A DNA stretch of 64,000 nucleotides from Psammoneis japonica (taxonomy: Eukaryota). The notes below the pieces were generated by a model, which was given only the letters and a program-made list of their open reading frames with translations, ran no database searches and had not been told where the DNA came from. A program made the translations under genes and the position numbers. The stretch covers positions 434,001-498,000 of the forward strand of contig QPGO01000044.1 of assembly GCA_008632985.1 (NCBI GenBank), read 5' to 3'. Position 1 is the first letter of the stretch. Each line of letters begins with the position of its first letter. Shown one piece after another: positions 19,861-55,470 of the stretch.

Positions 19861-20264
19861 AAAGAAACCGGTCAAGAGTGTGCTGTTGTCTTGTAGAAGT
19901 GGGCCAGACTCAGGCTCTTGATGCAGTGGCTGGAAAGAAGGCACACTCAGACAGAGACATCAAGGCCAGACAATTTCTGGGTCTGGTCTTTTCACACTGG
20001 GCAGAATTCTGTTGAAATGCTCAAGCATCAATTGTGGGGTTGGCCATGCATTGGGTTGCATTTGGCTCTCCATCAAGCCCAGACCCAGATCTGATGCAAT
20101 TGAAGCATGCAGTGAGTGCTGGTGCAACACAGTGGCTTGGACACAAGCCAACTTCAGAGCCCCAGACAACTGGCTTGGGTGTTGTTTTTATCTGCAACAG
20201 AGTGCTGATGGTTTCAACATTGCTCAATCAACTTCTTACATTGGCTTGGTGGGGTGAGCCCAAT

Positions 20265-20802
20265 CTGTCAAAAATCTCCAATCAAACAGCTTTTGGCATC
20301 TCAAAGCAAAAGTGGGGTCATGTCCTGTGAGCTGCAATGGCACACTCCAATGCCTCAAATGCCTTGCATTGACACGGGGCAGAGAGGGGGCACACTCTTG
20401 GGGGGGTCTTTCTGGCTTTTTTCCTTTGGCTGCAAGAGCCACAGCACTCCATCAGAGCATGTGTTGCAGTGATCATTAAGGCTGTCTGTCTCACAGCAAT
20501 TGTCAACCTTTTTGCATGTGACATTTGTGCACTGTCAAAAATCTCCAATCAAACAGCTTTTGGCATCTCAAAGCAAAAGTGGGGTCATGTCCTGTGAGCT
20601 GCAATGGTGCACTCCAATGCCTCAAATGCCTTGCATTGACACAGGGCAGAGAGGGGGGCACACTCTTGGGGGGGTCTCTCTGGCTTTTTTCCTTTGGCTG
20701 CAAGAGCCACAGCACTCCATCAGAGCATGTGTTGCAGTGATCATCAAGGCTGTCTGTCTCACAGCAATTGTTGACCTTTTTGCATGTGACATTTGTGCAC
20801 TG
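20265..20802 (+). repeat. Tandem duplication, 2 x ~268 bp
   Basis: Units start ctgtcaaaaatctccaatc at 20265 and 20532. Confidence 0.95.
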
Positions 20803-21280
20803 AGATGGACAACCATCTGCCAGTTGTGCACTCAGTGAATGCGTGTCAACTGTGACAGATGAACATTTTCATGATGCTGCAGGATCTGTCCCCCCCATCC
20901 CAATCCCATGAGGAAAACATGTTTCACCATGAAACAGCTGTCCATGTTCCCTGCAAGAGTTCCCACCCTTTGCCTCTACAAAACCTGTGAATTAAAAGCA
21001 TTTGCACTGCAAATGCTCTGTTTTGTTGTTTGCATTTAATTCAAATGATGCTGATGGAGACAACACAATGATGCCCAAGGCCCGACATGCTCACCAGATG
21101 CAATCTGTGGACAAAAAACATGGAGGTCAGGTGACTGCACTGAGACTCTCAACTGCAAGAGCATGACACAGATGAGCTGACATGATCAATGGAAATGGCT
21201 GGCAATGGTGACGTAAACTTGCTGTTGGGTCTGCCGCTGCCACCACTGACTCTGGTGCCCTCAAGTTTGTGGTGGCAACT

Positions 21281-21760
21281 GCAGCTCTCTTTCTTGAAGT
21301 GCTGTCATTCTGATCCACCCCATTCATTGCCATAAAGTGCAGAAAACGTTGTGAGAGTGCAGTGTGGAGATGAACCAACACAACCAACAGGAGCAGCAAC
21401 ACAGACTTGCCGGTGCACCCAGTGCACCACTGATTCTGGAGCAGTCGAGTTTGCAGCAGCAGCAGCTGCAGCTCTCTTTCTTGGAGTGCTGTTGCTCTGA
21501 TCCACCCCTTGTTCATTGTCAAAAAGTGCAGAACATGTTGTGAGAGTGCAGTGTGGATGAACCAACACAACCAACAGGGGCAGCAACACAGACTTGCTGG
21601 TGCACCCGGCACTGCAGAGCAGGCAAGTTTGCAGCAGCAGCTGCTGCATGCAGCTCTCTTTCTTGAAGTGCTGTTGCCATGGTTCACCTTGATCACTGCC
21701 AAAAAGTGCAAAGCAGGTTGTGAAAGCACAGTGTGAATAAACCAACACAACCAATGGGAA
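21281..21760 (+). repeat. Degenerate tandem repeat, about 3 units of ~185 bp
   Basis: gcagctctctttcttg(a/g)agtgctgt recurs at ~21281, 21468 and 21650, each followed by aaccaacacaaccaa. Confidence 0.85.
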
Positions 21761-22592
21761 TGGCAACGTGGGCTCACCAGTGTGTCTGGTGCCAGCACTG
21801 ATTTTTCGGAGCAACTCGGCGTGCAATGTCGTGCACCCAACTCCATCCCCACAACTCAAAGAAAACACAGAAATGCTTGAGAAAGCATGTGAGGAAGCAA
21901 AACACATCTTAAGTTCCACAGAATGCATTCGTCAGATCAGCTGTGGGAACAAGCACCACCTGCATGATGTGCACAACACTGTGCAAGGCACTGCATGAAT
22001 GACAAGTCACAATGAGTGTGCATTTGATTGAAGCTTGTGTCAGAAAAGCCAATGAGACATCAGAAGAACAACACAAAACAAGTGCATTTTGTTGAATGCT
22101 GTTGCTGCCATTTTTCAAATTCTGCTGATTGACACTTTTGACAACGCACACGCAAAAAATCACAAGTGCCCAAATTGGCGCGTGCACTCTGATGTCGCGG
22201 GGTCCAACCACTGCTGAGGAGATCAAGAAACCTTCCTGAAAGTGCAAAACCAGTGCTCACATTTATGATTCTGAAGGTCTCTCTTTCTGTGGTGCAAGTT
22301 TTGTTGTCAGTCCTCTGTGGAGAGAGGTGTGTTGGCCAATGGACAGATGGACACACGGACGGACGCGTCCGGACATGACTGTTCAATGAAGAGCACAAGA
22401 GGCCACATTCGATCCAGCTCTCTCCCGCGCCAGAATTTTTTTGGAACTTGATCCGACAATCGTTCCCCAACGCATAACGCATGTCAAACAGCAAGTTCAA
22501 CGCAGCTGCTGTTGGACCACGACACTGTATGAGAGCCGCTTGTGTTTATGAAATCACAAAGTATATCCTGGAGCAAGGAAAGAGTGTGAAGC

Positions 22593-27307: not shown

Positions 27308-28370
27308 TCACAGCAATGTAGAGAATAGAAGTTCAACGATGCCTGATGTGTTCAAAACCACATCAGCGTCATGGGACGCATCATTCTTGTGGAAAGGAAA
27401 GATCACAGACTTGGCATGGATGCAGTGACAGTGTGCCACAGGACCACAAACTTTACCGCACTGTCCCTCATTTGCTGACCCAGCCACTGTCATGTTGCCT
27501 TGTTCCTTAGATGGAAGCCACCTCATGTTGGTCAAACTTGCACCATGCCCGCCAATCAGAGCATGTGCCTTGCTAAAATGGTTGGCGCAATCTCTGGGCA
27601 AGAAATTTGCAGCTCTGCATCAGAAGGAACATCAAAAGAAATGTGTGGACACATCTCTTTGAGTCTTTCCATAAGGGCCTTGAAATTCCAAGCTTGTCAC
27701 TGGATTTCTCTTTTTAACTCACCAGTCATCTTTGTGCAAGTGGGAGGATTGACAAACAACTGTTGGGTGCAGCTTGGTGCAGAGCCACGTCTGCAACAAT
27801 GCCATGTTTGCTCAACATGCAGGCCACAAATTTGCCACAATTCTTAAAATGAAGCTCATTGCATTGTTGTTTTTGTGTGGGAAAAATCAATGTTGGAAGA
27901 GTGGTGTGATGATTTTCTTGGCAGAGGATCAATCTCCCAGTCAAACAATGAGAACAATGGAATCTTGCTAAGACGATTCTTTTTTGGTGTCACGCCAGTC
28001 GACACCTGACTGTTCCAACATTTTGCACTGTAATCAAGATGGGATGGTGCAGCATGCATGGGTTGGTTGGGGCATCTGTGCTTGTTCTTCATGGGCACAT
28101 CATCACCCTGCCTTGGATGAAGCTCTTGAAGCAGCTCCAAACAATGGCACAAGTTGCTTTGCATTTAGAGACAACGACTGCAAAGGGGTTGCCAAGGCAT
28201 GTGCTGAACCTTGTTGGTCAAACAGCTCTGGAGCAGGAGCACAAGATTGGGGAAGCAATGGTGCAGGCTGGGCCATGCTCGCAAGTGGGCTTGTGGCATT
28301 TTATGCAAGTGTGGTGACAATGGTTCTCTTCAAGTGCAGCGTGAAGAAAGAGAAGCTGCATTGATTGTTG
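27308..28370 (-). pseudogene. Hypermutated glycosyltransferase family 61-like relic
   Basis: C-terminal FSKAHALIGGHGASLTNMRWLP matches the GT61 HGAGLTN motif; upstream SNLCHCLE resembles NxYH. Broken frames; 5' limit uncertain. Confidence 0.6.
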
Positions 28371-30650
28371 ATGGCTCTGCTGGCATGACAAAGGAATGGA
28401 GATTCAATGCAAGTGACATCATTCTCAATGACAAAGTGCTGTGTCCTTTGCAGCCATCATCTTTTGCCACTCTTCCACCCAAGCAATTGAACATTGTGGC
28501 AAGCAGGCACTGAGTGCTGAAACAGTCCAGCATGCATTGGCAATGGGGTGTGCCACAACAAATGACTTGGCGTGAACCCTGGACAAGGATGCATGCAATG
28601 ACATCACATGCACTGCGACCGTCATCACACACAGCAGTCTAATTGTGTGCATGCAGAATGAACAACATGCTGACAAAGATTGCCATGTCACACTTTTAGC
28701 ATTTCCACTTCTGTTGTGAAGGCATGCCAACAAAGATTGCCACATCGTGCTTTCAGCATTTCCACATCTGTTGTGAAGGTCCAAAGCATGTTTCTTAAAA
28801 ATTGAAACACGCCAATGTCAAAAGCAGCTGCCAGCATTGAAATCAGTTGTGCAGGTTTGCCTCAAAAGCACGATCAAAAGATGGTGTTAAGGATGTGTGC
28901 ACTTCACATCAAGAAACAATGAACTTTTGTTTGGCAAAGCTGCTGAGTCATGCTTGAGCTCTGAGCTCTGTTGGCCACTGGTGCCTCCATGGGAAGACTT
29001 GAGGGGGGGGGGGCATGTGCAGAAACAAACAGTGTTTTGGTGGCAGACTGTGACAATGGATTTCACGGCATGTGTCAACAGGTGAAAAAGTCATGTCTGT
29101 TCCTGCTGCAAGAAATTCTGGCACATCTGGCATTTCCCTGATGACATTGTCAGGCATCCAAGGTTCTTGTTGGAGTGAATGTCTTTCCCTGATGGGGCCA
29201 GCTGCAGGTCCACCATGGTGGTGGAGGAAGAAAATGGCAAAAAATTGTGTAAAAATGCAAGCACATTTTAGAAGCTACGACAACAACCAGCGGGCCTTTT
29301 TTGACAGTGGATGAAGTGTCGATTCCTGCCGCATGTTTTTGGGTGTGGAGAACTCAACTGTGGGGTCTGTTCATTGTTTCTGTTGTTGAAGATTTGAAAA
29401 AATTGCGGCCCATGTCTGGGCCACAAACGGGCATCTGATGCGATTGGCATTGGCAACAACAACAACGCATCTTCCGACAGGGGGCTCTGGCTCTGCAAAA
29501 AAACCCAGAACTTCACAAGAGAAATGAAAGCATGTTGCACCATGATTGTGTGTGAGCAAAACAAGAGGTTGGGCATGCTCAATGGCCCGCCCTGAGGGTG
29601 AGGGGTTGTCCAGCTTGATGAAGGCCTCTTTCTGGGCAGCACCCATCACTCACATCATGCGTGACTTGAGTCACAGCAGCACCCACAGTTGCCCTTCCTT
29701 TTCACCAATTGTCTGAGCATCTTTCATGATGAGCACCACACATCTTCTGGAGGGCACTCAGCTCCATTGTCAGAAGATTTCTCACCACACAAAAATGCTG
29801 CACTTCTTAAATCTGAAAACAGGAGGCAGGCGCAAAGCAGCAAGCGTGCTGACTTCATCCACATTTTGAGCAGCTTTTGCAAAGTTCAGGAACAGGGTTT
29901 CTTGATCTCTGCTGGAAGCAGAGGGCTCATCAGTGAAAATGTGGAATGTGGTGCCTCTCACATGACTGACTCTGGCAAAATCCAAGCAGAGTTTTCACAC
30001 TGCCGGGCCCACAAGAAGCAACTTGACACCTGCCATTTTCTTCTTTGCTGCTACGCCATCAGGCTCGTCTCCTCTGAGCCAGTGCCTTGAGCCTCTGGGG
30101 CTGGAGCAAGGAGCGAGCTGTCACTCGTTGAGGTTTGCAGGGCCATTGCGCCGACTCTTGAAGTCAGTTGATGTTCAGACACCAAGCATGCATGCAGGAA
30201 ATCACATCACTGTCAACCTGCTGCATGCACGCACTGCAAACACAACGTTTCTCCACAGGGCCCCACTGTCAAAAATTCAAATGTCATGCAATTATTCGGA
30301 TTCTGATGTTAATGTAAATAACGTGCGTCATGACACAGGCTCAAATGATGGATTCGAGGTACGAGCTCCACAAAAACAGCACGGGAACAGTGCGCGACGA
30401 ATGGCCAACGGCCGTTTCCACCTGCAGTGCAGCTGCTAAAAAATGACTGTGCCACCACAAATGGAGGTCTGAATGAACAATGCTACACCAATCCTCATCA
30501 CATTGATGCATGAATGGATCCTGAGCAGCTTTGTTGCTGCAGTCCATGGATCCATTGACTTGCTCCTCGTGGCTCTCCTCTGTTTCTCCAGTGCCTCTCA
30601 TTGAACTCTTCTGGCTTTTGAAAATTTCAACTAGTTTCTCCTTATTGTAC
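27330..30650. other. CpG- and TpA-depleted hypermutated block 4
   Basis: Same signature; includes a 2 x ~57 bp repeat at ~28675-28780 and a decayed minus-strand gene starting near 30742. Confidence 0.78.
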
Positions 30651-32833: not shown

Positions 32834-35800
32834 TTACTCTACTTCCCTCGCAGCAACCTTCCTTGCTTTGTATTGAAGGTAAGTAACAGAAATCACATGG
32901 ATGGAGTGCTGTACTTTCTTCAAGAGCTGTAGTTGTCTCATTCGTTGCCTGACATCAGCTCCACTAACGGGCGAAGCGGTCGTGGCAATGCGCATGATGG
33001 AATGCGTTCGATCGATGCGGTATCCAAGCAACCCAAAAGAGATTCTAAAGAAGAAGTCACTCACACGCTTTCCCATTTGGTGGAACATAACAGTCATGGC
33101 GACGAAGCGCTGCAGCGATGCAATCCGAGTCTCGTAAAGCTCTTGAGCAAAGTGCTGGCTACGGGCCAACATGAAATCAACGGCATCTGTTTCCGACTTG
33201 CCCCCATTGATCTTGCGGAGAGTCTCTCCAAAGTACTTTTCATTGCTGGCTTCGACCTGGATGATGCCGCGATCGTCTCTGTTGCTTGGTGGTAGTTTGA
33301 CACCACTATGGAGATCGGAGATGCGTAGGAGTTCAAAGAATTCGTCAACATCCAAGTCTCCCGACCCATCTTCGTCCGCCAATCGAAAAAGAGATCGAAG
33401 GTGATCATCCGAGAGGGACGCCTGCAATCGATAGGATCCTTCAATGAACTCTTCTTCCGAAATGAAACCATTTCCGTCAAGGTCTAACGCATGGAAGAGT
33501 TTGCGAGCGGTGTCTGACCATTTTCGCTCTTTGATGGCCTCGTCCACCACCTTCTGCACTGTCAGGGCATCATCACTATCTGTTTCAACGGACGGGGACG
33601 ATGGCTGCTCAAAGTTAGCGTAAGCACCAATCAGAGCAGCAGCAGAACGACGCTTTTTGACACGTGGTTTGATGCTAGGATCGTGAATGCTAGTCGAGTG
33701 GTGACTGGATGCATCAAGAACAGACGCCATGTCGCGACGGCAGGGAATACAGTCCAGAATCGACCGCCTCCGAGGCATGATCGAATCGCTGTCGCCCTGA
33801 GCTCTCAACGACTGGGTTTCTTCATTGTAGTCAGTCTCGACCAGCATGCGCTCACATAAGAACAACGGCCGTTTGCGCTTGAGAAAGATAGCACTGTGGC
33901 TCAATGGAAGCTTGAATGGGTTGTGACCAATTGTAATGGACTCGCAAGTTCCACCAATTGACTGAATGCTACTCGCCTGGTTAATCGAAAGGGTAACGGA
34001 GGCTTCTGCAGTACTCAACGCCGACAGCCGTCCATCTGGTCGGCCACAAATCACCAAAGAACCACGAACTACCCTGTGCGTGTGCCGATGGACAAAGTGA
34101 TCCGCTGGATTTCCAGATAAGACGTTCAGACCAGCAATGCTGTAGGAGCAGGCAAAAAGCTTGCTCAGGAAGGCCTCAGCAGCCTGTGCCACGTATGGGA
34201 TATCTCCAATAACTACTGTCCTTCCCACCATGCGATGCTTCAAGTTTCGACCTTGGATCAATCGAAGAATCGTGATACAAATCTGTGGCATCCAAAAGTA
34301 AATGGCTGAATCAAAAAGACGCACTAAAAAGAACGAGAAAGATAGAATGAATAAGCTGTTAGCTCTGCTGGTTTTAAGGCACAATCAAAGCCGCAATCTC
34401 ATGCGTTCAAAGTTCTCACCTAGATACATCCAGTCACTCGAATCATCCAGACCAGCAGCAACGGCTACGCCAAAGCAAAGAGGATAACCGATTGTGACAG
34501 TGACAAAGATGTAAATGAACGTCATTATGTACGCTCGAGCATTCTCCAAAACATGATTTGCCCACAAATCACCTGCCTGGCGAAGTACAATCTCCGTGGC
34601 TGGCCTATGAAGGACAAAGGGCTCTGCCATGGTTGTGACACCGATTATCTCACACAGAGCTTCGATATTCTCTCTGTTGCATTTTTCAAGGATCTGTAGA
34701 TCTGTTTCGGTGATGACCGCTCCCGACATGCGGCGGAAACGGCGATCGCTCAAAATGACAACACAGATATACTCAAACAAATTCGTTAGAAGCTGGTGCG
34801 TTGCAACCACAGACACGGAGCACGGCTCTGCGGGACGCATACCAACTTCAGTAGAGAAGATACGGCTGTTGAAGATGTAATCTTCATCGACGTCATCTAG
34901 AGCGTCCATCGCTCGAAGTTGCTTTCCAATCTGGGTATCCCATTCACTTGTTACGACAAAGATATTCTTTGTTTGGCTCTGATTGAAAACAAGCGAACAA
35001 ATACTGAGGAAACACCAATCCTACGAATAAGTATCAACACTACACATCTCGACGGCATACCTGTAACAGATTGGAACACGAGAGCGGAGAAAATGTCCCA
35101 CCAGATCCTTGCACCCGAAGAGGTGTACGGAACAATTCGGTTGCACATGACTGATTTGTACCACCTAGAAGAAAGTAGAAGATCATGCCGCTAGGGTCTC
35201 GCTGCATTAACAATAATCTATTTCAAAATTAAAAATAGTTTCCATGTTTCCATTTAATATACTTCTACATGCCACTGCCCATTATTCTTGAGTTGCTTGA
35301 GTTTCTCCTATCAATCCTCTCCTTTGTTACTCGCAACTTGTTCCAGTGCGTCCTGGATTCCGGGCATCATCCCCTTCGCCTAGTTACATAATATCATTCC
35401 TATGATAAGGGATCACATGATAGCCATCAATGTCTGAGCCGCGGTCGTTGCCATTGTGATTGCCGGTATCGTCTGTTGTGTCGTCGTCGTGGTCGCGGTC
35501 GTTGCCAGTTGTACCAACTTCGTAATCTTTCCAAAACTCTAAACGGTTCCTCATTTCTATCAAGCTGGAAGTATTGATATTGGATAGAAGACTAGATACG
35601 TAGTTCAACTCGGTCTCGACAATGTTCTTGGTGTCATCTCTGGTTGTGAGAGGGATCTCGACGTAGCGCTTAGAAAACATCTTCTTCTGTGCACAAGCAA
35701 ACGTTCCTCTGTTCAACAAGGCATGTTCAATATAAAGCATAGCAATTTGATCGGCCACGTCTTCCTTGTCCAGAGCATCTTCTCCATTCGTTACCAAAAT

Positions 35801-38800
35801 CTCAAAGACGCGCTGAAGGTGAGGGGCTTTCTTCAATTGTTTACGAAAGATGCTGTCGTTCCAACACAATCCATCAAGCTCTCTCGTCGCTGTCTCTGAA
35901 AAGAAAAGCAAAGAAGATGCAGATACACCCTCATATTCGACTCGAGACATGGCCATGGGTATGAAAGACTCAAGGAGACCAACGACGCCCTGTTAACTTT
36001 GGGGTCGACGGTTGTTATAAGAGTGACTGCTGATTGTGCTGCGACGCCTCGCTTTCAGTGGATCTTGTTCTCGTGTATGTCTAGTACATTTTCTACTTAC
36101 ACAAGATTGTATTGGGCATCGCCTTTGCTCGTGGTGACGCATGTTCTTCTGTGTTCTTCCGAGTATGTACTGATCTAGTACAGTTTCTACCTACACAAAA
36201 AACATATTGGAGTCACCCGTGCGTGTTGAAGTCAATTTTCTGGCGCGCCAGGAGAATTCTTCGTAGATATAGTACAGTTTTTACCTACGAGAGAGTTTCG
36301 TATTCCTTCTCGTAGACCGAATCTCACGGTTTTGCAGCGTCTCATTTTTCGTTCACTTTTGCACACGCGTCGTGTGCAGTCCTTCATCGACGATGGGGGA
36401 CAGCCTTGATTTTTTTGCGCCTCGCAAGAAGCGAGCGAAAGTCGATACCTCCGTTATGCCCGCCGCCTCCATGCCCGATGCCTCTGTTATGCCCGTCGCT
36501 GCCAAAGTCCACACCGACGAAATGGACGCCCCGATCATACCCGATACCTCCGTGATGGACGCCGCCTCCATGCCCGATACCACCGAGAGGGACGCCCCCG
36601 CCGATTACTCCGAGATGGACTCCGTCATTGGCGAACGCTACTTCAATCTTGAAGAGACTGCGAAACACCCGGTGAGGAAGATTCCAAAAGCCTATTCTCA
36701 AATTACCACGCTCAAGGCGAACGAGCCTTCGATGAAGGGCAAAACTCCCGTGGAACGCAAGGGATTTGTCGACGAAAATGGAAAGAGGGTGGTCCGAGAT
36801 TGTTTTGTTGGCTGGTCGGCTGCGCAAATTCGCTCATGGTTGCCAGGTAAGTCATTCAATTGTCCACATCTGCATTTTGTTATGAGCATCAGAGCACCAT
36901 CTTACATTCTTGTTCCTTGCACTTAGAAAAAGTGGACTGCCCGTTATGCCTCAGAAAGGACGTCCATAGAGACAAGATGGTCATCGATCGAAGCCGGGCT
37001 CATGGGTATAGAGAATGCGACGTTTGTGCTTCAGAAACCAAGCATAGGAATAGGTATGACTCAGACAAGGGTCTGGTCCACGAGCTAGTGAAGTACCCAA
37101 CTTGTGTCGGATGCGGCGCAAATTTACAGAAAATGTACGTCAACGAACATTTGCGTCATCTCGTGCACCAAGACCATTGCCATCACGAGAAGTGCACGGT
37201 AAGTGACTTTGCATTTTCGTTCTCTTCGTGTTTTGCACTCTTTGTTCTAACGTTCCCTGACTTGCCTCTTCTGCTGCAGAACAACGTCAGGAATCCCAAG
37301 TGTTCTGATTGCAACAACATACTCAAGCTGGCTGGTGACAACCCTACCGTTCTAGAAAACCTGGCGAGAGATTGCCTGAATCACAGGCGCGTGTCCCCCA
37401 ATTGCGAAGGGGGTATCAGAAGAGCGTTGGATGCCGAACTGCAGGAATTGCCGGATCACCAAGACGCCTTTGCTGCCATTGTAGCTGCAGTAAAGACTTC
37501 CTCAACGAAAATCGCCCCCACTGACAAAGCTCGTAAAGAAGAGGGTCGCCACGACGGCACGCCGGCTAATCCAAAGACCACCGACGTTGTGTTCTCCCGC
37601 AAACGGGCTTACCAGAAGTTTGCCGGCTACGTCATATACAAAAAGCTCTTGGCGGAGAATGTCACTCGCTATTATCAAGCAATTGGCAACAAGTCCAGGC
37701 AAGCCATCAAGTGCGAAATCATCCGCACCGTAGAGGACACTGGTGGCCGGTTCATCACAGAGGATGGTGGCAAGTTTTACGTGATGACATTTGGTGCAGT
37801 ACTCTACAAATTGAGCGGTTCTTTTTTACGTGAGAAACAGAAGAAGGAGAAGAAAGTGTAGACTTAGAGCTTTTAGTAGAAGAGGTGTTGAATTTCTCGT
37901 GCTTTCGTTGTTTCTCGTTTACCACGCTCAGAGTGGCTTACGATGATGACAATTGCATCGTGCAGATGATGCGTCGTCGGGCTGTCTGGAAAGCCAAATG
38001 CAGGCACAGCAATTTCTTGTCCATAGAGTCCAAGCAACTTGTTGCTACTCACAGCTTTGATCCTCAGATTTGGAAACGCTTTCTGAAGGTCACTGGCAAA
38101 CTGTTCCGCTAGCCACAAGGACACTTCACATCCCGTTAGAAGAATATCAATGGCACGAGGATGAGTCTTTCCGGCAATATGGGCTTCGAGACGTGCTCTG
38201 AGGCACCGAGAGAGATTGAAAGCGGTCAACCGGTTAAGGCTGGAGGATGCCTTGTCGGACTGCCACTCATCTTGGATCGCCTGACAAACCTTGGGGATGT
38301 CTTGAATGTCAGCCAGAACAGGATCCGTCGCATCTGGTTGTAGTGGCTTGATGAATCTGTTTCTCGTCAATCGAGTCATTCGGTGGTATATCTGAGGGTC
38401 TTGAGTCGTAGCTTTGCTCTCTTGGTACAAAATCACGTCGAGAGATCCGTTCATGAGCTCATGTATCAGTAGCTTCTCGTTGGGCTTGGACATTGGAGGG
38501 CTCTTATACTTGGCTCTACCCCAGTCAAGTAATACAATCTCTCCACCCAAATCGTCAAGGTCAAGACGTAAAGCATCATTGTCAATATCGCCTTGTGATC
38601 TCCCAAGTACATCTGCATCGTCTCCAGGAAAGGCAAAATTCATTCCTGCCTTGACAGCCGCTTGCTCACTTCCGTAGCATAAGAGTCCCTTGTTTGGATA
38701 AAAGGCCACCGACATTGTCTGACCGCGGGCTGCCAGACAGATCTGTCGATAAGCATCCAACGAAGACGAGACGCAAAGTCCAAAGGAACCCTTGGCGTTT

Positions 38801-40185
38801 TGGAGAAAGGCCTTGGTCGTCATGAGGAGATCGTTATCAAAAAAGGCATTGATTGTCTTGAGGCAAAAGTCAAATATACTGTTTCCGCTTTCACCCTCTC
38901 TGGAAATCCACCGATTCAGAGGTTCAATCAATGTATCGCACCGAGCTTCCAGTTTTGTTGCCACACGCATGGCAAAGGAACGACGGATATCGTCTTGATC
39001 TGAAATACGTTCAAACCCAGTCGTCTTGAGCATCTCGCCAAGAACGTCTTCAAACAGAGAACCAATCGATTCAAAGTAATGATAGTCGGGAAACGTTTTA
39101 TTCTTGATTTGCAAGGTACTCGTCGAAAGGCCCAAACAAATAGCATAGCGGGCACTCAGCCCAAAGCTACCTTGGGTACGCATCAAATCGACAAGGCCGG
39201 CAATAGCACAAGAATCGACAGGTGCCGGCATGGGACCAAGAACCGTTTGTAGAAAGGTCTGGACTACTTCCAAGTCGTACGTAACTCCATTCAACTTAAA
39301 ATACTCAAAGTCACCATTGTGCGTGACAAAGTTCTCCACCCGAGTATTGCGTGGTACAAAGTCGTGGCTGCCGGTATGCTCCACCTTCATATTGTAAACG
39401 CGACAAGTCCTTGGCGGAGTCCATTGCTGAGGATGAGTGCCCTCAAAGGTGGCCTTGGACGTTGTTGCAAAACGAGTATGGCCAGCAAAAAAGCTACAGT
39501 CACCGCCGTGAGGAAGATTTACATCGCGTTCAATGCGCTTTCGAACCAATTGACTAAGGTCCGTTCTCTTTCTATTCACAACACGACTCCGAATTCCCTT
39601 GAGACCATCACTGCTCTTGTTGTTGTTATCGGGCTGAAAGGTCACGACACCACCCGACTGAGCTCCTCTCATGCTTGTCACTCGAATCATGGTTGCTAAA
39701 ATGTCTAGTGCCGTCCTGCCGCCATTGTCACTCGACCATGCCTTGTGAAGCAAAAGTATTCCAAAGTTTCCGCAGTAAAAGACATGAAGAGACCGAGATC
39801 CTAAAATACCAACGAGATCGGTAGAAACGGCCTCCAAGGCTGTAATTAGAGCCATCATACGAGCAATGCGACAATGGCTTGTATGATTCTGGTTATCCGT
39901 CGTGATCCAGACAACAGCAGCCAGAATCACACTCGCTATCCATCCAGCATGACGAACCACGGCAGAGTCAATGACATTATCCGCGAGCTCTGGAACAACA
40001 ACTTGACGCAAGAACAAGGATCGGAGTATCACACCGATAATGCCATTACGGCTAAGTATATCATCTGAATAGCCAAGCGCCGCCGCGGTCAAGAGATGAG
40101 CTCCTTCATGAAGTGCTCCGAACAAAAGATACCAGAAAAGTAGGACCAACATCCGCTCATGAGCAACCTTGTTGCTCATGGTCAC
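32834..40185 (-). CDS. Membrane-associated class II glutamine amidotransferase/SIS (GFAT/GlmS-like) protein with EF-hand pair, interrupted by a 2.8-kb insertion
   Basis: Exons 40185-~37929, ~35105-35061, 34978-34420, 34323-32834; GT-AG introns 35060-34979 and 34419-34324. Motifs CGNFG, GHTRFATTS, THNGDF, IIVSHS|GGTF across the insertion, and EF-hands DLDGNGFISEEEF and DEDGSGDLDVDEF. Confidence 0.85.
35384..35956 (-). CDS. Hypothetical protein inside the insertion (acidic C-terminal tail)
   Basis: 190-aa ORF with normal composition, divergent from the nuclease gene; no recognised motif. Confidence 0.55.
   Translation of the reverse strand: MAMSRVEYEGVSASSLLFFSETATRELDGLCWNDSIFRKQLKKAPHLQRVFEILVTNGEDALDKEDVADQIAMLYIEHALLNRGTFACAQKKMFSKRYVEIPLTTRDDTKNIVETELNYVSSLLSNINTSSLIEMRNRLEFWKDYEVGTTGNDRDHDDDTTDDTGNHNGNDRGSDIDGYHVIPYHRNDIM
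36082..36288 (+). promoter_or_regulatory. Three 19-bp direct repeats at 94-bp spacing between the divergent genes
   Basis: TAGTACATTTTCTACTTAC (36082), TAGTACAGTTTCTACCTAC (36176), TAGTACAGTTTTTACCTAC (36270); regulatory role inferred from position only. Confidence 0.6.
36393..37861 (+). CDS. Endonuclease VII-like (His-Me finger) nuclease fused to a DUF6824-like domain, with N-terminal NLS; ~435 aa after splicing
   Basis: Introns 36847-36926 and 37199-37279 (GTAAGT...AG). Spliced: CVGC...QDHCHHEKCTNNVRNPKCSDCNNILKLAGDNP. C-terminal TDVVFSRKR...TGGRFI...YKLSGSFLRE. NLS PRKKRAKV. Confidence 0.75.
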
Positions 40186-46827: not shown

Positions 46828-48552
46828 ATGGCTTCATCGTCTCCCGACAAGCAGCGTATTGCGGAACTCGAGCAAGAAAACGAGAAACTCCGTCGGCGCG
46901 TGGCTGAACTCGAGGAACCAATCATTTCTGGCGTTACTCCGGAAAATCTCAACATTCCTTTGGACGGGACAAAGGAGACTCGTGAACTGGTACTGTCTGC
47001 AATCAAGGACCGCAAGATTCATTTCTGTGATCTCAAGATGGAATGGCAGAATGACATGGAGATTGTATGCAGCGCCTTTCATGCCTTTCCAGCACGGCGC
47101 TGTGTAGGTCCAGACAGGTCGACATCTGCACGCATTAAACACCACAAGCAAGTTTGCTACTCGCGTCTACCTTATAATCTGATGGTAAACGAAAATGTCC
47201 TTATTGCTGCTTTGGCGTCCCGTGGTGGTCCTGCTTCATGGGAAGATGTTCCGACTTGGTTGCGAACCAAACCCGACGTTATCGCGGCAGCTCTCATGTA
47301 CCGGAGAATTGACTTCGAGGACGTACCAGAGAAGCTTAGGCTTGGTCACCCCAAAATTGCATATGTTGGAGTTGCTAAAAACAAGATTCATGCCGACGAT
47401 TGTGATTGCATTGGCATTGACATGTGGAAGATTGGAGTCACGAGTGGAGATATGATTTGGACACAGCTGCCAACAGGCCTACAATCTGACCCCACTTTTG
47501 CTCGTGATCTCGTTGAAGAACCGCTTAGTTTTACGTTGGCAAAAACCATTTTGACGCATGTGGCCGGATTGTGTCACGATGCGAAAACTTGGAACAAGCT
47601 ACTCTCCGTAGCAATAGATGAGCACTCCCACACTTTCACGCGATACCAATTTCAGGAGCTTTTTGAGGAGTTCACACCTGCTCAACTGCTTTCTAATTGG
47701 GATTTCATGGCTTACATGTGCAAGCATCACGAAGAGGCATTTTGTGAGGCCGACCGTTTCCTGGCGACGAATGCAGACTTTTTGGCGGAAATTCTCCACG
47801 GAAATGTACGAGTGCTCAGGTTCTTGGGCCATGGACCTCAACTAACACACTTACCTCTCGTCATAGACGTATTGTCATCTCTTCGGCATCCTGATGTAGA
47901 TTCGAATGTTGCGTATATGATCCAAAGGGCGATTGCACCCTCCCTTTGGGATAACATGGAATTTGCCCGAGCCTGGATGAAGGCCGGTCTAGGTTTTCCG
48001 CATGTAATTGGAGGAGACAAACGTTGGGAATGGGGAGAGGACCGTGAAATCTGTTTTGCGCATGCCACGATGAACGGTAATTTGGAATACACACCTGAAA
48101 AGTGGCTTGATGACGAAGAGTTCATGCTTTCAGTTGTCAACCATTGCAAGAACCCAAAGGTGTTAAACGACGTGTGCGAACATGCACCCACCGGAAAGGT
48201 CGTCGTTGCTGTGTTTGCAGCGTCGTCTGAGCTTACAGCAAAGAAGCTGTTAAGTCTGCATATTGAAGGAAGGGATCAGTCCATCAAGAAGGCTTGTGAT
48301 TGCTTGCGGCGGAATCTTCAAGTGTACGACACTTTTTCAGAGTGCATTCTCGGTAGCATGCTTTCGACATGTACCGTTGAATCCACAGGAACGCCGTTGA
48401 GCCTTCTCAATCAAGGACCAGATACTTCTCTTCTTTACAAGCAAAATCTTGCTGAGTACATTGGTGTGCCAACTGGAAAATGGTTGCGACAGCTTCGTCA
48501 GGCCGGAGAAAACCTTCGTCGTGCTGTTGCCCCTTGGGCACCTGACCTCTGA
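46828..48552 (+). CDS. DUF4116-like helical repeat protein
   Basis: 574-aa ORF; N-terminal coiled coil; recurring D/N-x-E/D-F/I/V units (WQNDMEIV, WDNMEFA, LDDEEFMLSVV). Confidence 0.7.
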   Translation: MASSSPDKQRIAELEQENEKLRRRVAELEEPIISGVTPENLNIPLDGTKETRELVLSAIKDRKIHFCDLKMEWQNDMEIVCSAFHAFPARRCVGPDRSTSARIKHHKQVCYSRLPYNLMVNENVLIAALASRGGPASWEDVPTWLRTKPDVIAAALMYRRIDFEDVPEKLRLGHPKIAYVGVAKNKIHADDCDCIGIDMWKIGVTSGDMIWTQLPTGLQSDPTFARDLVEEPLSFTLAKTILTHVAGLCHDAKTWNKLLSVAIDEHSHTFTRYQFQELFEEFTPAQLLSNWDFMAYMCKHHEEAFCEADRFLATNADFLAEILHGNVRVLRFLGHGPQLTHLPLVIDVLSSLRHPDVDSNVAYMIQRAIAPSLWDNMEFARAWMKAGLGFPHVIGGDKRWEWGEDREICFAHATMNGNLEYTPEKWLDDEEFMLSVVNHCKNPKVLNDVCEHAPTGKVVVAVFAASSELTAKKLLSLHIEGRDQSIKKACDCLRRNLQVYDTFSECILGSMLSTCTVESTGTPLSLLNQGPDTSLLYKQNLAEYIGVPTGKWLRQLRQAGENLRRAVAPWAPDL

Positions 48553-48729
48553 GATTGCTCACCACTCAAGTCTCATACATGGCACTTCTCTATGCATGCG
48601 GGGCGTTGCGAAAAACAGAGGTTACATTGCGGACTATTTTGGTCGCAATTATATCGATCACACCGTAGTTTGTTTCAGCTTCTAATATGTTGTCTTGGGC
48701 CCTCTTCTCCGCCCTCTACCGTAGAACAA

Positions 48730-50990
48730 TGTGTTGTTCAAAGCTTTGTCTGTTCCTTCACAACTTTCAACTTGAAACATTTTGGTTTGAGTCGCTGTTT
48801 GATGTGGCCCCAGTTTTGAAGTGCCGTGGCCGGAAAGTCAAAGTGCCGCAGAAATCTGCTTCCAATTGAATGTTCATTTCTTTTCTAGCTTGAGACAAAT
48901 TTGACCTTGTTCAGCACATGTCAGCGACATCAACACGGCTTAACTCCAAGCACTTCAAACTCAGTGAATCCCCAGTTTGTGCATGAAAGCACTTGTCATC
49001 TTTGTGGGGTTTCAGATGCACCAGTGGGCTCGAACGTCTCCAGCTTAAAGATGAAGATAAACCGCACAGTGGAAAAGGAAATGGGTTGATGTGCCTGCAT
49101 TGAAGCTGCTGCAACCTTTCCCTTGTGAGTCACCAGCACCTCAGATTCATTCCATCCCACAAGGTGATTGTTCCCCTCACTGTCACATGTGAGGCAAAGG
49201 CCATCACATTGTGGGTGTTTCCATTTTGCTGGGTGCATCATCATTTGTGATGATGCAATGCAGGCACTTGGATGATTCAACCTGTTTGGTTCCTGCATGT
49301 TGTGCATGTCATGACATCAACAACTCCCTTGCAAATGAAAGAAATGGTGAAGGACATCCCTTGCACAACAATGCTTGCAGTGGCAAAACTGCCAAATGCT
49401 GTCTTGGTGCTGGCTTTCCTTCTGTTCTTTGGAAGAATGACCAAAAGAGAAGAAAAAAGCTGAGACAAATGAGCTCCCATGACAGTTGTCAGCACTGTGC
49501 TCAACTTGCACATTGATTCAGCAGGTGGCTGACTGGCGAAATCATCACAACTGCCTCTCTCTTTGACTTCTTGACAGGACAGCAGCCCACTTTGCTTCCT
49601 CTTTGATGCAGGGTGCCTGGCTCACTCACCACTGCAAGGCTTTGTGCAACAATTGTGCAAGCCCTGCATGTGTGTGCCTTGTCTAAAGAGGCTCTTGCAG
49701 ATTCGGAACAGATGGCACAAAAAAAAATGGCTAAAGTGATGTTTGTTGTGTGGAGCTCATCTGCACACACATGTTCGTTTGGCTCAGTGCCAAGTCAGGA
49801 GTGTGCTCACAACACCGCTGCAATGCACAATGGTGCAAATTGCGCCATTGTGCTCAAAGTCATTTTCTGTTTTGTTGTTGCTGTGACATTGCCTCTGTGC
49901 ACAGCAGTGTCAACTGAGCTCATGTTGACAGGTGCAAGCAATGAGCGCAGCTTGCGATTGTTGCACATCTTTCAATGGACAGCACAGGGCAGAATTGCAC
50001 TCTTTTTGCTGAAGAATCCTTTGTGAAGTGCAGCCATCAAGAGAGTCTGTGCCAGCTGAACAAAAGCAAGATGCTCACATTGTCTCATTTTTGAAACATG
50101 GTGCAGCCTCCAGAGCATCTCCAGCAGCACACTTGGTCTGTTCCAAGCAGCAAGACAACAGTGAAGCCATGTGGAAACTCTGAAAAAACACAAAAAAACA
50201 CTTGCAATTGTTCCACCATGTGCCAAATGTGAGACCCCACATTGCATTTGCTTGGAGCCTCAGGGCTGAGGTCAAATCACTTCTCATGTGGACACCAACA
50301 AACAATGCCAAGGTGCTGCATGCTCGGCTGAAAACTGAAAACCTGCACAACAACAAGGGAAACAAACAACACAAGAATCATGTTGATCCTGGTCAGCCTT
50401 TTTGCCACCCACCAGTGCCATGACTCTCACATTTGATGAGCCACAAATCAAGTTTCTTGCCCTCTCAAGAGAGGTGCCTGGAGCCTCAGGGCTGAGGTCA
50501 AATTGCCTCTCATGTGGACACCAACAAACAATTCCAAGGCATCACACACTGGACTGAAAGCTGAAAACCTGCATGACAACAAGGGAAACAGACAAGACAA
50601 GAATCATGTTGGTCCCGGACAGCCTTTTTGCTGCCCACCCGTGCCGCGACTCTCATCTTTGGTGTGTCACAAATCAAGTTTCACCCTCTCAAGGTGGCAA
50701 CTGTGCACAAAACAGGAGCTTGCATCTTGACACTCCAAACACATGCTTGCAACCATTCGTGGCTCATGGCACAGGTTCAACACAGCACGTGGGCATTCCA
50801 GAACGTGACCATCACATCATGCAACATCATGTTGTGTGGTGCATGAGCCGGGTGAGTCATCTTGCCAAATGGTGCCAACAGGCAACTGGCAGATGGTGCG
50901 CATCAATCGACTCATGTTTAAATGCAGCAGCAGAGGCAAGGCTGTCGGCAACACATGGTCCTCACTGGGATTGTGGTGACAGTGTGGAGC
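48730..50990. other. CpG- and TpA-depleted hypermutated block 5
   Basis: Same signature; content unidentified. Confidence 0.78.
50253..50693 (+). repeat. Tandem duplication, 2 x ~226 bp
   Basis: Units start tggagcctcagggctgaggtcaaat at 50253 and 50479. Confidence 0.92.
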
Positions 50991-51191
50991 TGTACCGTAC
51001 AATGCTGACCGACGCTGTCGAACAAATGCTTTCTATCCGTCATTGTAGAGACATGCCAGTCTGGCAACTGCCTCTCTAGCTACTAGAGAGTGGTCATAGC
51101 ATGTGCCTGCCGGTACGTAACTCCACCGCTGACTCCTCCACAGGCTGAGCAATGCAATTATTTTATTTTAACTGGTGTGCTGGACGGCACT

Positions 51192-54100
51192 TTATTGTTG
51201 AAGCCTACGAATGTCTTCCAGCACAGCATCCTGGAGTGGCAACATTCCTTTAGTCCCCGCAAGAGAATACATTCTAATGCCGCATATGTCTGGCAGCTTT
51301 CGGCTGATGTTGTCCCACCACCGTTCAAGCATTCTCTGGTTAACCCGCCCGTCATTCACAAAGAAATCCATGAATTCCTTTTCTTTTGGGAAATCATTTG
51401 GTCCCTTGAGTTCGTCAAAGAAAATTGGTAAGATTATTTTCTCATGTTGCAGCGCAAGGTCGAGTTCCAGCATACACCAGTGGCGTTGAAAATACTTCGG
51501 AGACAAGACAGCAACAAATATGGAGCAATTCCTTGCCTCTAATCGGATCCGACGCTCGAGGTTCTCTCCCGTTTGCAGACACGTGTCATCATAGAAATAC
51601 ACCATGCTCTCACGTTTCAACTCTCTTTCGAGGTATGCTGTAAAATCGGCCGCTCTAGTGTCCTTGCCCGTGTGACTGAGGAAAACCTTTGGCTTGTCTG
51701 TAATGATGCCAAGTACCTCTTGGTTGAGCTGCTTGACATAGCCGACTTGCTCTCCCGTTGTGATAAAGTCACTTTTATCACTTCGGTGCACCCATACATT
51801 ACCAATCTCAGGGATTTTAACTTTTACGTAGTTGTCGCCTGTTTTCTGCCCTAGGTTGAATTTACATTCCTCATCATGGGGCGACCATACTAAACCCGTT
51901 GGTATTCCTTCGTATTCAGGGGGTCGTAGTGGCTTGTTCTTTTGAATCATCTCCACAATGGATTTCATTTCCCCGTGTTGTAACCCTGTCGTTTGAGTCT
52001 CCATCGATACGCTCACACCTAGAGTCCTATCCAGCCGAACCGTCTCAGGTTCCAGGTGGGGCAGAGAGGGAAAGCTAGGTGTCCGCTCTTGGTCTCGTAT
52101 GTCAGCCAAAGTGCGCGGAGTTTCAGACGACGGCAATCGTTACACCCTCCAGATAGCAGGTGCTCTTGTTTCGCCAAGAGGAGGTAGCAAATGATGTGGG
52201 GCTCGTTCGCATGTTTTTCAAAAAGGTTTCGCAGTGAGTCTAACGTGTCTGCTCTCGAAGACGAATCAGGCTCACTATTCTGCCCACTTTTGACCCTGCT
52301 CTCCTCTAGTGTCCTCTGTCGCTTTAGGTTTCGTGGTGAGTCTAACGTGTCTGGTCTCAAAGACGAATCAGGCTCACTCTCCTGCCCGCTTTTGTCCCAG
52401 CTCTCCTCTAGTGTCCTCTGTCGCTGCTTCTTCACTCCAAGCAGCCATTCTGCCACTTTGTCAATCTCACGGACCGAATGACATAGTGGACAAACGGCAA
52501 CAGCTTGTCGATAGTCTTGAAGCGTTTCCATGCCCCAACTCTCTGACAACAACCGCCTGCCAATCGCGAAGCACATTCCACATCCAAACGTACGAGATCC
52601 ACCCCAGGAAAGTCTTTCAGGCAAGAGCTTATTGCTTGCAGGATACGATACTGCAGGAGCCTGCCTTGCCCGTATGTATTAACCAGTACGACTCGCTCAT
52701 CCTCTTCCCAAACGAGTCTTCCAAAGCTTATTAGGGCTTTCTGACCGTCCGAGGTGATTGTTTCCATAACTACGCAGCCATTCTTCCACCATCCACCAAT
52801 CAACGTCGATCCACGAAGCTTCACCTGAAGCTCCGGCCACAAACGTCGGGACTGAGTAGATAACTCGATTTGTATAATAGGATTCGGTTTCAAAGCGCTG
52901 TTGTCTGCGGCGAGCTCTTCCACAAGTGTCTCCATTGCCGAACCAGACCGAGAAATCATAGCCGGAACTAGTGTTGCTTCGTATTTCTCTCCGTCGTCAT
53001 CACGAATCGGAAAGCCAACTTCGCATTCATGGATCAGAGCTAGAAAACCATCATGAAGCTCTTTCGGATAGTCCTTCCAAACTGCACCAAGTTCCCGGTG
53101 CCGCAGGTATCCATCGCGTGCGTTCCTAACGTATCGCTTGTCATTGGTAACTACTCGTGCCAAGACTTGAGCCAGTTCCGGTGGGTCAAGGATGATCTCT
53201 CCCGTCGGCAAGCGCAGCACTTCGCCAATCTCATTGAAGAAGGTCAGTACACGGTCAACGCGTTCTTCCTCGGCGATGTTTACATCCTTGGCATGAGAGT
53301 CCCATTCATCTCTTGTCAGAAAAAACTTCCCGTCTTGCCGGAGATCGGCCAACTTCGATCGTAGACGTATGTACGTGCTCGGCACCAGCATGTCCTTGAC
53401 CCCGACGGTGGCACCAATGTCATCCATCACCGACTTGGCCGTGGCCTTGATTCGTTCCATCAGACCAGAGGTGCCGTTTCCGTCTTTTGCGCTCGTGTGC
53501 ATGTAATCAACAAAGTTTCGGCCGTACAAATCTTTCAACTTATCCTCCACGTCTGGCGATAGACTAGCGTGGCCCATGTCAGACTTTGTTGTCACAAAGA
53601 TAATTCGAGCATTTGGGTTTGCATCTAGAACGTCTTCGGCATAGCGATGGAAGGGCGTGTCCGTTTGGCGGTTGTCCCACACCACCACAAACACGGCTCG
53701 GGTGCGTAGAAAGAGTTGGTGTGTCGTGGCATAAATAGGTTGACCTCCAAAATCATAAAACACCAATTCGAGACCACTCTCATCCTTGATTCGTTCCTCC
53801 AGCATACCGTTAGTCATTGCAGGTGGCGGCGTTGTTGGATATTCATCTCGTACCAAGCGAGACACGAGACACGTCTTTCCTGCTTCGCCTGGACCTGTAA
53901 CGATAACCTTGGTTATGGCGAGTGCCTCCTCGCCCGTTTCCCACCGTTCACGCAAAAAGGTGAGAATTTCTCTGTTATCCTTGTTGTTGTACTCAAGGGG
54001 CACTTGAAGCAGGGGTAGGTACTCGTTCAATTGAAGGAAATCAATGTATTCGAGTTTGGGAAATTTTTGCTCCAACAAGGCTCGAGCAAATTTCTCACCC

Positions 54101-55470
54101 GTATCGCGGTCACATGATCGTCCAAGATACACATGTCTGAGGCTGTCGTTATGGCTAGATGCCATGGATGAGACAATAGAATTGGCGCCGTTGTCTCCAA
54201 TGCTATTGTCGTAAAGGACGAGCTCTCGCAATGTACCATTGTTTGGCAAGGCCTGCGCCAACGCCGTGGCTCCCTCGGCTCCAATGCTGTTTCCGCCAAG
54301 CTGGAGCACTAGCAATGTACCATTGTTTGGCAAGGCCTGCGCCAACGCCGTGGCTCCCTCGTCTCCAATGCTATTTCCGTAAAGGAAGAGTACTTGCAAT
54401 GTACCATTGTTTGGCAAGGCCTGCGCCAACGCCGTGGCTCCCTCGTCTCCAATGCTATTGCCGGAAAGGTAGAGCTCTTGCAATGTACCATTGTTTGGCA
54501 AGGCCTGCGCCAACGCCGTGGCTCCCTCGTCTCCAATTCTATTTCCGCCAAGGTTGAGCACTTTCAATGTACCATTGTTTGGCAAGGCCTGCGCCAACGC
54601 CGTGGCTCCCTCGGCTCCAATGCTATTTCCGCCAAGGACGAGCTCTCGCAATGTACCATTGTTTGGCAAGGCCTGCGCCAACGCCGTGGCTCCCTCGTCT
54701 CCAATGCTATTTCCGCCAAGGTCGAGCTCTTGCAATGTACCATTGTTTGGCAAGGTCTGCGCCAACGCCGTGGCTCCGTCGACCCTAATGCTATTGTAGG
54801 AAAGGCCGAGCACTTTCAATGTACCATTGTTTGGCAAGGCCTGCGCCAACGCCGTGACTCCCTCGTCTCCAATGCTATTTCCGCCAAGGTGGAGCGTTTG
54901 CAATGTACCATTGTTTGGCAAGGCCTGCGCCAACGCCGTGGCTCCCTCGTCTCCAATTTTATTGTGGGAAAGGCCGAGCACTTGCAATGTACCATTGTTT
55001 GGCAAGGCCTGCGCCAACGCCGTGGCTCCCTTGTCTCCAATTCTATTTCCGCCAAGGAAGAGCTTTTGCAATGTACCATTCTTTGGCAAGGCCTGCGCCA
55101 ACGCCGTGGCTCCCTCGTCTCCAATGCTATTTCCGACAAGGTCGAGCACTTGCAATGTACCATTGTTTGGCAAGGCCCGCGCCAACGCCGTGGCTCCCTC
55201 GTCTCCAATGCTATTTCCGCCAAGGTCGAGCACTTTCAATGTACCATGGTTTGGCAAGGCCTGTGCCAACGCCGTGGCTCCCTCGTCTCCAATATTCCTT
55301 CCTCTCAATTTGATCTCCGTTAGCTGTGGATCATTTTGTTGGAGTCGACGGCAGTACTCCGCCACCGTTGAATTTTGGTTGGACGTTGCATGCTGGTTCG
55401 ACGTTGAATTTTGGTTGGACGTTGCATGCTGGTTTGACGAAGCATTGTCGGCGGACATGGATGATCCCAT
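51192..55470 (-). CDS. LRR-Roc-COR-TIR (Roco-type) receptor; two apparent frameshifts near 52545 and 52020
   Basis: 13 RI-type 28-aa LRRs; Roc GTPase (VTGPGEAGKT, YDFGGQ, TKSD, TSAK); COR-like region; linker in ORF 52019-52624; TIR in ORF 51192-52136 (KVFLSHTGKD, VLSPKYFQRHWCMLEL). Confidence 0.85.
52225..52428 (-). repeat. Coding tandem repeat, 2 x 102 bp
   Basis: RQRTLEES...DTLDS.RNL occurs twice, 34 aa apart. Confidence 0.85.
54200..55295 (-). repeat. Array of 13 x 84-bp LRR units
   Basis: Near-invariant caatgtaccattgtttggcaaggcctgcgccaacgccgtggctccctcgtctccaat alternating with ~25-nt variable segments. Confidence 0.97.

Follow-up and report, generated by a model that had tools for sequence, protein, structure and literature searches.

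A 2.8-kb gene-carrying insertion without terminal inverted repeats, flanked by a 4-bp direct repeat, in a coding exon of a conserved diatom gene of Psammoneis japonica

A conserved gene on the minus strand of Psammoneis japonica contig QPGO01000044.1 was found to be split, within a coding exon, by a segment of 2823 bp that carries two genes of its own. The locus lies in a 64,000-nt stretch of that contig (positions 434,001 to 498,000 of assembly GCA_008632985.1), referred to here as the window, and all positions are those of the window; the split gene is called the host gene and the segment the insert. The tetranucleotide CAGA was read directly at 35102-35105 and again at 37929-37932, and the 2823 bp in between are 35106-37928. 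The insertion and the parts of the host gene on either side of it are as follows (no strand is given for the insert and its repeats).

37930..40179, minus strand: host upstream exon, from the start codon to S-H-S, frame intact (open reading frame (ORF) and orthologue alignment).
37929..37932: right copy of CAGA, whose AGA is the last Ser codon of S-H-S on the minus strand (direct reading).
35106..37928: insertion body, 2823 bp, in none of the orthologues examined (reading and orthologue alignment).
35102..35105: left CAGA copy of the 4-bp direct repeat, TCTG in the host-gene sense (direct reading).
35061..35102, minus strand: host short exon G-G-T-F-S-P-L-S-C-S-N-L-L-Q, followed by a GT intron at 35060-34979 (reading and alignment).
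32837..34978, minus strand: host downstream exons, including the EF-hands (intron 34324-34419), with no frameshift and collinear with the orthologues (alignment).

The host gene begins at a start codon at 40179, and its first exon, 2.25 kb in length, ends in ...I-V-I-I-V-S-H-S, the final Ser being encoded at 37932-37930. The frame picks up at 35102 as G-G-T-F-S-P-L-S-C-S-N-L-L-Q and then meets the GT..AG intron 35060-34979. When 35106-37932 (the 2823 bp and one CAGA) were deleted in silico, an empty site ...CCCAC CAGA GTGGC... was obtained and the host codons were restored exactly, reading V-S-H-S-G-G-T-F with nothing else changed. Eleven orthologues were fetched from 120 listed of 346 matches, comprising the seven closest (70-86% identity) and four longer ones. 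V-S-H-S-G-G-T-F was unbroken in all of them, and the run I-x-I-I-V-S-H-S-G-G-T-F-x-P-L was invariant in their alignment (11/11); judged from this alignment, the insertion separates two invariant residues, S and G, within the most conserved run of the host family. In the seven closest relatives, unbroken ORF calls end just past N-L-L-Q, the site of the window gene's next intron, so that this intron looks shared and the 2.8-kb segment does not. The named relatives among the matches listed are from the diatoms Mayamaea, Thalassiosira and Ditylum. A preliminary description of this DNA, made from its letters alone, had placed a 2823-bp segment with a 4-bp CAGA duplication within the codons for S-H-S-G-G, and the direct reading and the 11 orthologues both bear this out. 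The insertion is real, clean, within a coding exon and unusual, and it matches no transposon class testable here.

The target was a palindrome, CCAC-N4-GTGG, in which inverted 4-mers flank the duplicated CAGA; chance would give this in about 1 in 256 cases, for a single instance that was noticed post hoc. Enzymes that cut as symmetric dimers prefer palindromic sites of this sort. Public contigs of the sample were compared with the locus at a likeness of at least 85%, a filter that can drop contigs; four contigs of run X1 were aligned, and three short look-alike pieces came from other loci. One X1 contig of 8685 nt was identical to 33500-39500, without gaps, and spans both junctions. It was built separately, from a run that possibly has the same source or reads as the assembly, so that it counters a joining error and is not independent proof. 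An empty-site allele was looked for in contigs only, which show presence and not absence, and none of those aligned joined the host flanks directly.

The host family (orthologues P0025, P0031 and P0085 included) is conserved in diatoms, with proteins of about 1100-1200 residues laid out as N-terminal membrane helices, GlmS-like motifs without the N-terminal Cys, the S-H-S-G-G-T loop, membrane helices and C-terminal EF-hands. In the host protein and three orthologues, EF-hands were the sole Pfam domain and no Pfam amidotransferase or SIS match was obtained; against the PDB, no match was found by sequence or with the 11-member profile. When the host profile was compared with E. coli GlmS in hhalign, R-G-x-x-S-x-G and H-T-R-x-A-T...H-P were aligned in order (E = 0.082, probability 0.7%). 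A model of a host orthologue, predicted in AlphaFold with the 11-row alignment, reached a predicted local distance difference test score (pLDDT) of 45.2 and was too poor for a fold search. The name 'GFAT-like', which the preliminary description had given to the host gene, may weakly be defended at the level of these collinear motifs; it is unproven, with no Pfam or PDB sequence match behind it. Another contig of the same sample (8677 nt) matched 32 nt of the host gene (34914-34945, codons ...V-V-T-S-E-W-D-T...), and this contig is probably a paralogue able to cover for a knocked-out host copy.

The insert holds two divergent genes, and contig pieces from a second run, X2, cover 35282-35985 and 36366-37887, so that both genes lie whole within the 2823 bp, with little else. 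The genes and the features associated with them are listed below.

35384..35956, minus strand: orphan gene in the orientation of the host gene, 190 codons and stop, intronless, acidic C-terminus (ORF; X2 contig 35282-35985).
36080..36292, no strand given: 25-nt motif present three times at 94-nt spacing between the divergent genes (repeat family D2).
36393..36846, plus strand: exon 1 of the plus-strand gene, with a basic start resembling a nuclear localization signal (NLS), then 33-nt tandem repeats (ORF; the X2 contig skips intron 36847-36926).
36927..37198, plus strand: exon 2 of the plus-strand gene, Cys/His-rich, three CxxC motifs and then H-x-D-H-x-H (ORF, X2 contig).
37280..37861, plus strand: exon 3 of the plus-strand gene, V-R...CxxCN, DUF6824 domain (about 37583-37819), stop (Pfam; the X2 contig skips intron 37199-37279).
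37097..37363, plus strand: weak endonuclease VII (His-Me finger) likeness, split by intron 2 (sub-threshold Pfam and PHROGs matches).

The region between the divergent genes is presumed to be a shared promoter. The spliced coding sequence of the plus-strand gene comprises 435 codons in three exons, with two GT..AG introns (36847-36926 and 37199-37279). A single 1361-nt X2 contig covers 36366-36844, 36925-37197 and 37279-37887 and leaves out both of these introns, and another X2 contig leaves out the host intron 34324-34419. Run X2 carried the label 'DNA?', given by guess; since three introns are missing across two genes, we infer that it is cDNA, in which case the insert gene and the host gene are both processed.

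The orphan gene was described as such from the outset, and rightly: its protein belongs to no Pfam or PHROGs family, and one distant homologue, P0164, was obtained in the collections searched (37% identity over 135 aligned positions). A metagenome locus, L001, was considered as a relative of P0164 and rejected as a chance match (23 residues, 38% G+C, nothing else related). In the plus-strand protein, DUF6824 (PF20710) was matched at 40.6 bits (E = 3.5e-10), over the 27-bit gathering cutoff. Among 1.84 billion representative proteins, 41 matches were obtained, all on query residues 128-308 (the DUF6824-containing C-terminal part) and none on the Cys/His motifs; DUF6824 was present in seven of the eight library matches scanned, in one to four domain copies each. 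No match was obtained with the nuclease-like gene in a word-index search of 5.8 billion proteins, nor by tblastn of the window protein against phage sequences, and no relative of either insert protein was found in a viral contig collection. Vector DNA was rejected as a source, the insert having no match in a plasmid collection. A literature search for DUF6824 by that name returned nothing.

The preliminary description had also called the plus-strand gene an intron-containing relative of endonuclease VII. The introns stand, both being skipped in the X2 contig; the nuclease label was sub-threshold and no better than shuffles. Pfam Endonuclease_7 (PF02945) was matched at 15.7 bits (E = 0.014), under the 23.6-bit gathering cutoff, and PHROGs phrog_2633 'endonuclease VII' at a sub-threshold E = 0.0093; both queries were the translation reading through intron 2, which splits the motif, and were penalised for it. 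In a local alignment of the spliced protein with T4 gp49, CxxC, D-H, V-R and CxxC-N fell in order, at a score that 120 of 1000 shuffles equalled. The same motifs were aligned when the spliced domain was compared with our own profile of 14 annotated phage endonuclease VII proteins, at -3.5 bits, whereas shuffles of the Cys/His domain reached 11.2. The aligned residues are those to which we presumptively assign zinc-binding and catalytic roles in gp49. A single-sequence AlphaFold prediction of the Cys/His region, with intron 2 read through, gave a pLDDT of 43.7, again too poor for a fold search, and the nuclease-like protein obtained chance-level matches only (E about 1) against PDB sequences. 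Nothing relevant on endonuclease VII in diatoms was found in the literature by title or abstract. A His-Me finger in the plus-strand protein is plausible from motif order, and membership of the family fails every statistical test run.

The two ends of the insert were compared with each other, with the rest of the window and with the other contigs. Three stretches within it were of interest.

35105..35168, no strand given: terminal 64 nt, 57/64 identical to the mid-part of another X1 contig of 11,434 nt (contig alignment).
35117..35126, plus strand: left copy of the subterminal 10-mer GAAGAGGTGT, 11 nt inside the left end.
37879..37888, plus strand: right copy of GAAGAGGTGT in the same orientation, 40 nt inside the right end.

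The 64-nt likeness begins at the left boundary of the insert, and the sequence on either side of it in the 11,434-nt contig is unrelated. Coincidence with a boundary within 1 nt was estimated at about 1 in 1000 for three pieces over 6 kb, and a piece that starts at the left boundary in this way favours a defined element end. A further 72 nt (35254-35325, downstream of the orphan stop) recurred in another contig, with 65/72 identical, in both X1 and X2, so that a second locus shares the tail sequence of the orphan. The 10-mer GAAGAGGTGT occurred exactly twice in the 64-kb window, where 0.14 occurrences were expected. At the right junction, 12 nt (TTACCACGCTCA, 37919-37930, plus strand) were the same as 36703-36714 inside exon 1 of the insert's plus-strand gene (repeat family D16); about 0.45 identical 12-nt pairs are expected in 3.9 kb, and the position of one copy at the junction is odd.

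Terminal inverted repeats were not found in the insert: its 80-nt ends, aligned inverted, scored under the shuffle mean (991 of 1000 shuffles equal or better), and no pair in the inverted-repeat listing links the two ends. The insert has no long terminal repeats (LTRs) or long terminal direct repeats and no poly-A or simple-repeat tail. Terminal hairpins were no better than those of shuffles (end-fold z-scores of -1.5 to +2.0). In an Rfam search of the insert with E up to 1, only a chance-level bacterial small RNA match was obtained, and no group I or II intron. When the window was searched for transition-worn copies after purines and pyrimidines had been collapsed, only low-complexity sequence at 6818-7020 and the gene's own tandem repeats were returned.

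The insert had been described as normal in TA and CG content and young in appearance. Its composition was confirmed (observed/expected 1.05 for CpG and 0.62 for TpA, as in the surrounding genic DNA), and fits a young sequence or one not treated as a repeat. Composition differs over about 40% of the window, with CpG at 0.13-0.35 and TpA at 0.04-0.10 of expectation, TpG/CpA at 1.6-2.1 and ordinary G+C:

2001-4000, 6001-14000, 18001-22000, 28001-30000 and parts of 48001-52000 and 56001-60000: CpG/TpA-depleted blocks (composition).

These blocks look like the outcome of a transition process, CG and TA to TG/CA, in transposon-derived DNA. Repeat-induced point mutation in fungi enriches TpA, unlike the process suggested here. 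Nothing was found in the literature on such CpG/TpA depletion in diatoms. An ORF within one block (8887-9831, minus strand) gave an integrase core (rve) match at E = 4.8e-7, just under the Pfam cutoff, and is probably the relic of an LTR retrotransposon. Normal CpG and TpA in the insert mean that it was spared the process that wore down the depleted blocks; together with the intact host frames, this fits a recent arrival, or a single-copy sequence that the process does not target. The window as a whole is eukaryotic nuclear DNA, dense in genes that have short GT..AG introns, and its neighbouring ORFs include an amine oxidase, sulfotransferases, a galactosyltransferase, a ROCO/LRR protein, EMP70 and a TIR-domain protein. 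At 51195-55536 (minus strand) the TIR-domain ORF adjoins the large LRR-Roc-COR (ROCO) ORF, an innate-immunity-like domain pair in a diatom.

Four features taken together favour integration of an element: the 4-bp repeat, the shared left terminus, the palindromic target, and two whole genes with little else. We give about even weight, for and against, to the leading proposal, that the insert is an unclassified mobile cassette, one copy of a DNA element that is low in number, has a defined end and lacks terminal inverted repeats; it is a promising candidate for a new element more than a demonstrated one. A 4-nt staggered break would have been made in the exon of a conserved diatom gene at CCAC-CAGA-GTGG, and the 2.8-kb cassette, with two divergent transcribed diatom-type genes (one with introns) around a shared promoter region, would have integrated there, fill-in duplicating CAGA. 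As an alternative to the staggered cut, the target and a circularised element may have recombined by crossover within CAGA; that both target ends keep CAGA is accounted for by either route. The mover would most likely have been an enzyme acting in trans, such as a recombinase of the Crypton type with its crossover in CAGA or another stagger-cutting enzyme, and the insert's own Cys/His-rich protein would be a less likely agent. The mobility of the insert, the staggered cut and the enzyme are all what we infer from the arrangement of the locus. Mobilization by its own nuclease, as had been suggested earlier, is speculation, given a nuclease assignment that passes no statistical test.

Several results weigh against a mobile cassette. 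No transposase (DDE), tyrosine recombinase, Rep/helicase or reverse transcriptase was found when the two genes and 20 further insert ORFs of at least 60 aa were searched against Pfam; with the end shuffles and the repeat listing, this agrees with the preliminary description, which had seen no inverted ends, LTRs, poly-A, reverse transcriptase, DDE transposase or recombinase. The direct repetition of GAAGAGGTGT near both ends, to which it had also pointed, holds for the two exact copies and is not clearly beyond chance (in a local alignment of the 80-nt ends its score was reached by 91 of 1000 shuffles). No second full copy exists elsewhere in the window and no second contig covers the interior at the likeness applied; other copies with the same termini were likewise absent from the window and the aligned contigs, apart from the 64-nt left-end piece. 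The left terminus recurs just once, at 89% identity, and no look-alike piece of the right end was found among the contigs. DUF6824 is, by the library matches, a diatom-wide family, and both insert genes look like ordinary genes of the lineage and not like transposon genes. Beyond the DUF6824-only matches and the one orphan homologue at 37%, the gene pair has no relatives in the 5.8 billion and 1.84 billion proteins. Of the suggestion that the insert belongs to a family not yet described, there remains the single shared 64-nt terminus, set against the lack of a second full copy and of a related gene pair in the collections searched.

Among known elements the closest structural match is to the Cryptons, with which the insert shares the lack of terminal inverted repeats and long direct repeats and a 4-bp direct repeat at its ends. 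In the available text of PMC3212892, Cryptons have no terminal inverted repeats and carry 4-6-bp terminal direct repeats at which the crossover is taken to occur; CryptonS elements are known from oomycetes and from a diatom, Phaeodactylum. The insert differs in having no tyrosine recombinase ORF, so that it would be at most a non-autonomous relative; its termini are not the TATGG reported for most CryptonS, and only one copy was seen. DNA transposons with terminal inverted repeats do not match, since the insert has neither such repeats nor a DDE-type transposase, and LTR and non-LTR retrotransposons would call for LTRs, a poly-A or simple-repeat tail or a reverse transcriptase, none of which it has. 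Helitrons have a 3' hairpin and insert between A and T without duplication. The insert lacks their Rep/helicase, its ends are not 5'-TC...CTRR-3' on either strand and its end folds are not significant; it is like Helitrons and Replitrons in having no terminal inverted repeats and in that the second locus shares a terminal stretch only, as in variable-cargo families. According to the available text of PMC10288648, Replitrons carry short direct repeats at their ends or close to them, their duplications vary, and none were detected in diatoms.

A further explanation concerns the consequence of the insertion and not its origin, and is compatible with the mobile cassette: the insert may act as an introner, a spliceosomal intron of 2.7-2.8 kb with nested genes, with the host gene active and its loop slightly longer. 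We regard this as possible and lean somewhat against it. Candidate splice sites were found near both ends.

37917..37925, minus strand: candidate donors (5' splice sites) a few nucleotides into the insert, GTGGTA starting at 37925 and GTAAAC starting at 37922 (site scan).
35108..35174, minus strand: candidate 3' splice sites, TTTCTTCTAG (pyrimidine tract) ending at 35165 and GCAAG ending at 35108 (site scan).

Two donors and two acceptors give four pairs, all stop-free and in frame, whose products would carry 3, 4, 21 or 22 additional residues where the invariant S and G meet. Chance would yield in-frame pairs about once in every 3 cases, and no canonical GT..AG pair in the insert restores the original host codons. 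The position in a coding exon, the target duplication and the frame-keeping GT..AG sites near both ends are introner-like, and the host frames are intact on both sides, both sides occur in X2 contigs and the downstream intron is spliced. The four known introns at the locus measure 80-96 nt, against which a 2.8-kb intron would be a strong outlier. Many transposon classes give rise to introners, 72% of which are unclassified, and most introners are short, non-autonomous and multi-copy, as far as the available text of PMC12130899 goes; the insert differs from these in its 2.8 kb, its two own genes, the single copy seen, original codons that cannot be restored exactly, and splicing that is putative. 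X2 is silent on splicing of the host mRNA: neither 34946-35253 nor 37888-37955 lies within any of its contigs, and no contig connects the two sides of the insert. The host gene has either been knocked out recently or is rescued by splicing through the GT..AG sites inside the insert, and in-frame removal of the insert from the host mRNA can be put forward tentatively, as the somewhat doubtful outcome.

The insert may instead be immobile, captured once as a free or translocated chromosomal fragment at a staggered double-strand break, or copied in by two template switches at CAGA microhomology. A 4-bp repeat lies in the range of repair microhomology, the identity between the 12 nt of the right junction and the interior of the insert hints at template-guided events, and a single copy (as far as seen), the lack of a transposition enzyme in the insert and the ordinary diatom-type character of both genes (with introns read in the plus-strand gene, the orphan being intronless) are all in keeping with such an accident. 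Copying should, however, leave a near-identical donor, and none was found among the contigs at the likeness applied. By our estimate, only some 1 in 12 random fragments of 2.8 kb would include both genes complete; nor does capture explain why the left boundary falls just where a sequence shared with another locus begins, or why the target is palindromic. We consider repair capture unlikely.

Far less probable is a homing cassette, in which the NLS-bearing His-Me protein, with DUF6824 as its DNA-binding part, would cut the empty CCAC-CAGA-GTGG and the cassette would be copied into the cut allele. The insert resembles HNH/His-Me homing genes and T4 gp49 in that its Cys/His motif order (CxxC...DH.H...VR...CxxCN) is collinear with endonuclease VII and in that it sits in an invariant motif, the most conserved of a conserved gene, which is typical of homing elements; the weak matches to two endonuclease VII profiles, the NLS-like start, the palindromic target and the lack of an empty-site form among the contigs point the same way. 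It differs from them in a gene that is below every family threshold, with spliceosomal introns, an NLS-like start and a diatom DUF6824 domain, and in being flanked by a duplication, which gene conversion does not leave, with no self-splicing intron, intein or Rfam family within it. The nuclease assignment has failed every statistical test run, and no homologue of the Cys/His region was found among the 1.84 billion representative proteins. We know of no nuclear homing cassettes borne in exons. In the boldest variant, to which we likewise attach very little probability, a DUF6824-fused nuclease would cut CCAC-N4-GTGG with a 4-nt stagger and insert itself and its partner gene, and the spliceosome would remove the giant intron. 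Misassembly of two loci, which the preliminary description had named as a possible undoing of its own account, is scarcely credible, nothing having been found in its favour and the host halves being collinear, in the same orientation and joined to the insert by an exact 4-bp repeat, with the 8685-nt X1 contig (possibly from the same reads) crossing both junctions without differences.

Diatom genomes are thought to hold mostly LTR retrotransposons and few classes of DNA transposon. A gene-carrying cassette without terminal inverted repeats and with a 4-bp duplication, if this is what the insert is, would be a sign of an integration route so far uncatalogued in diatoms. Should the insert be removed by splicing, it would offer a rare view of intron gain as it happens, in an intron that encloses complete genes, and would show how far an invariant active-site loop can lengthen; if the nuclease-plus-splicing variant were true, the biology of homing endonucleases would be linked to the gain of spliceosomal introns. 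If it is a repair accident only, it would still amount to a clean knock-out, made by nature, in a diatom family that is conserved and uncharacterised and whose proteins bring together a membrane region, parts that are amidotransferase-like and sugar-isomerase-like, and EF-hands.

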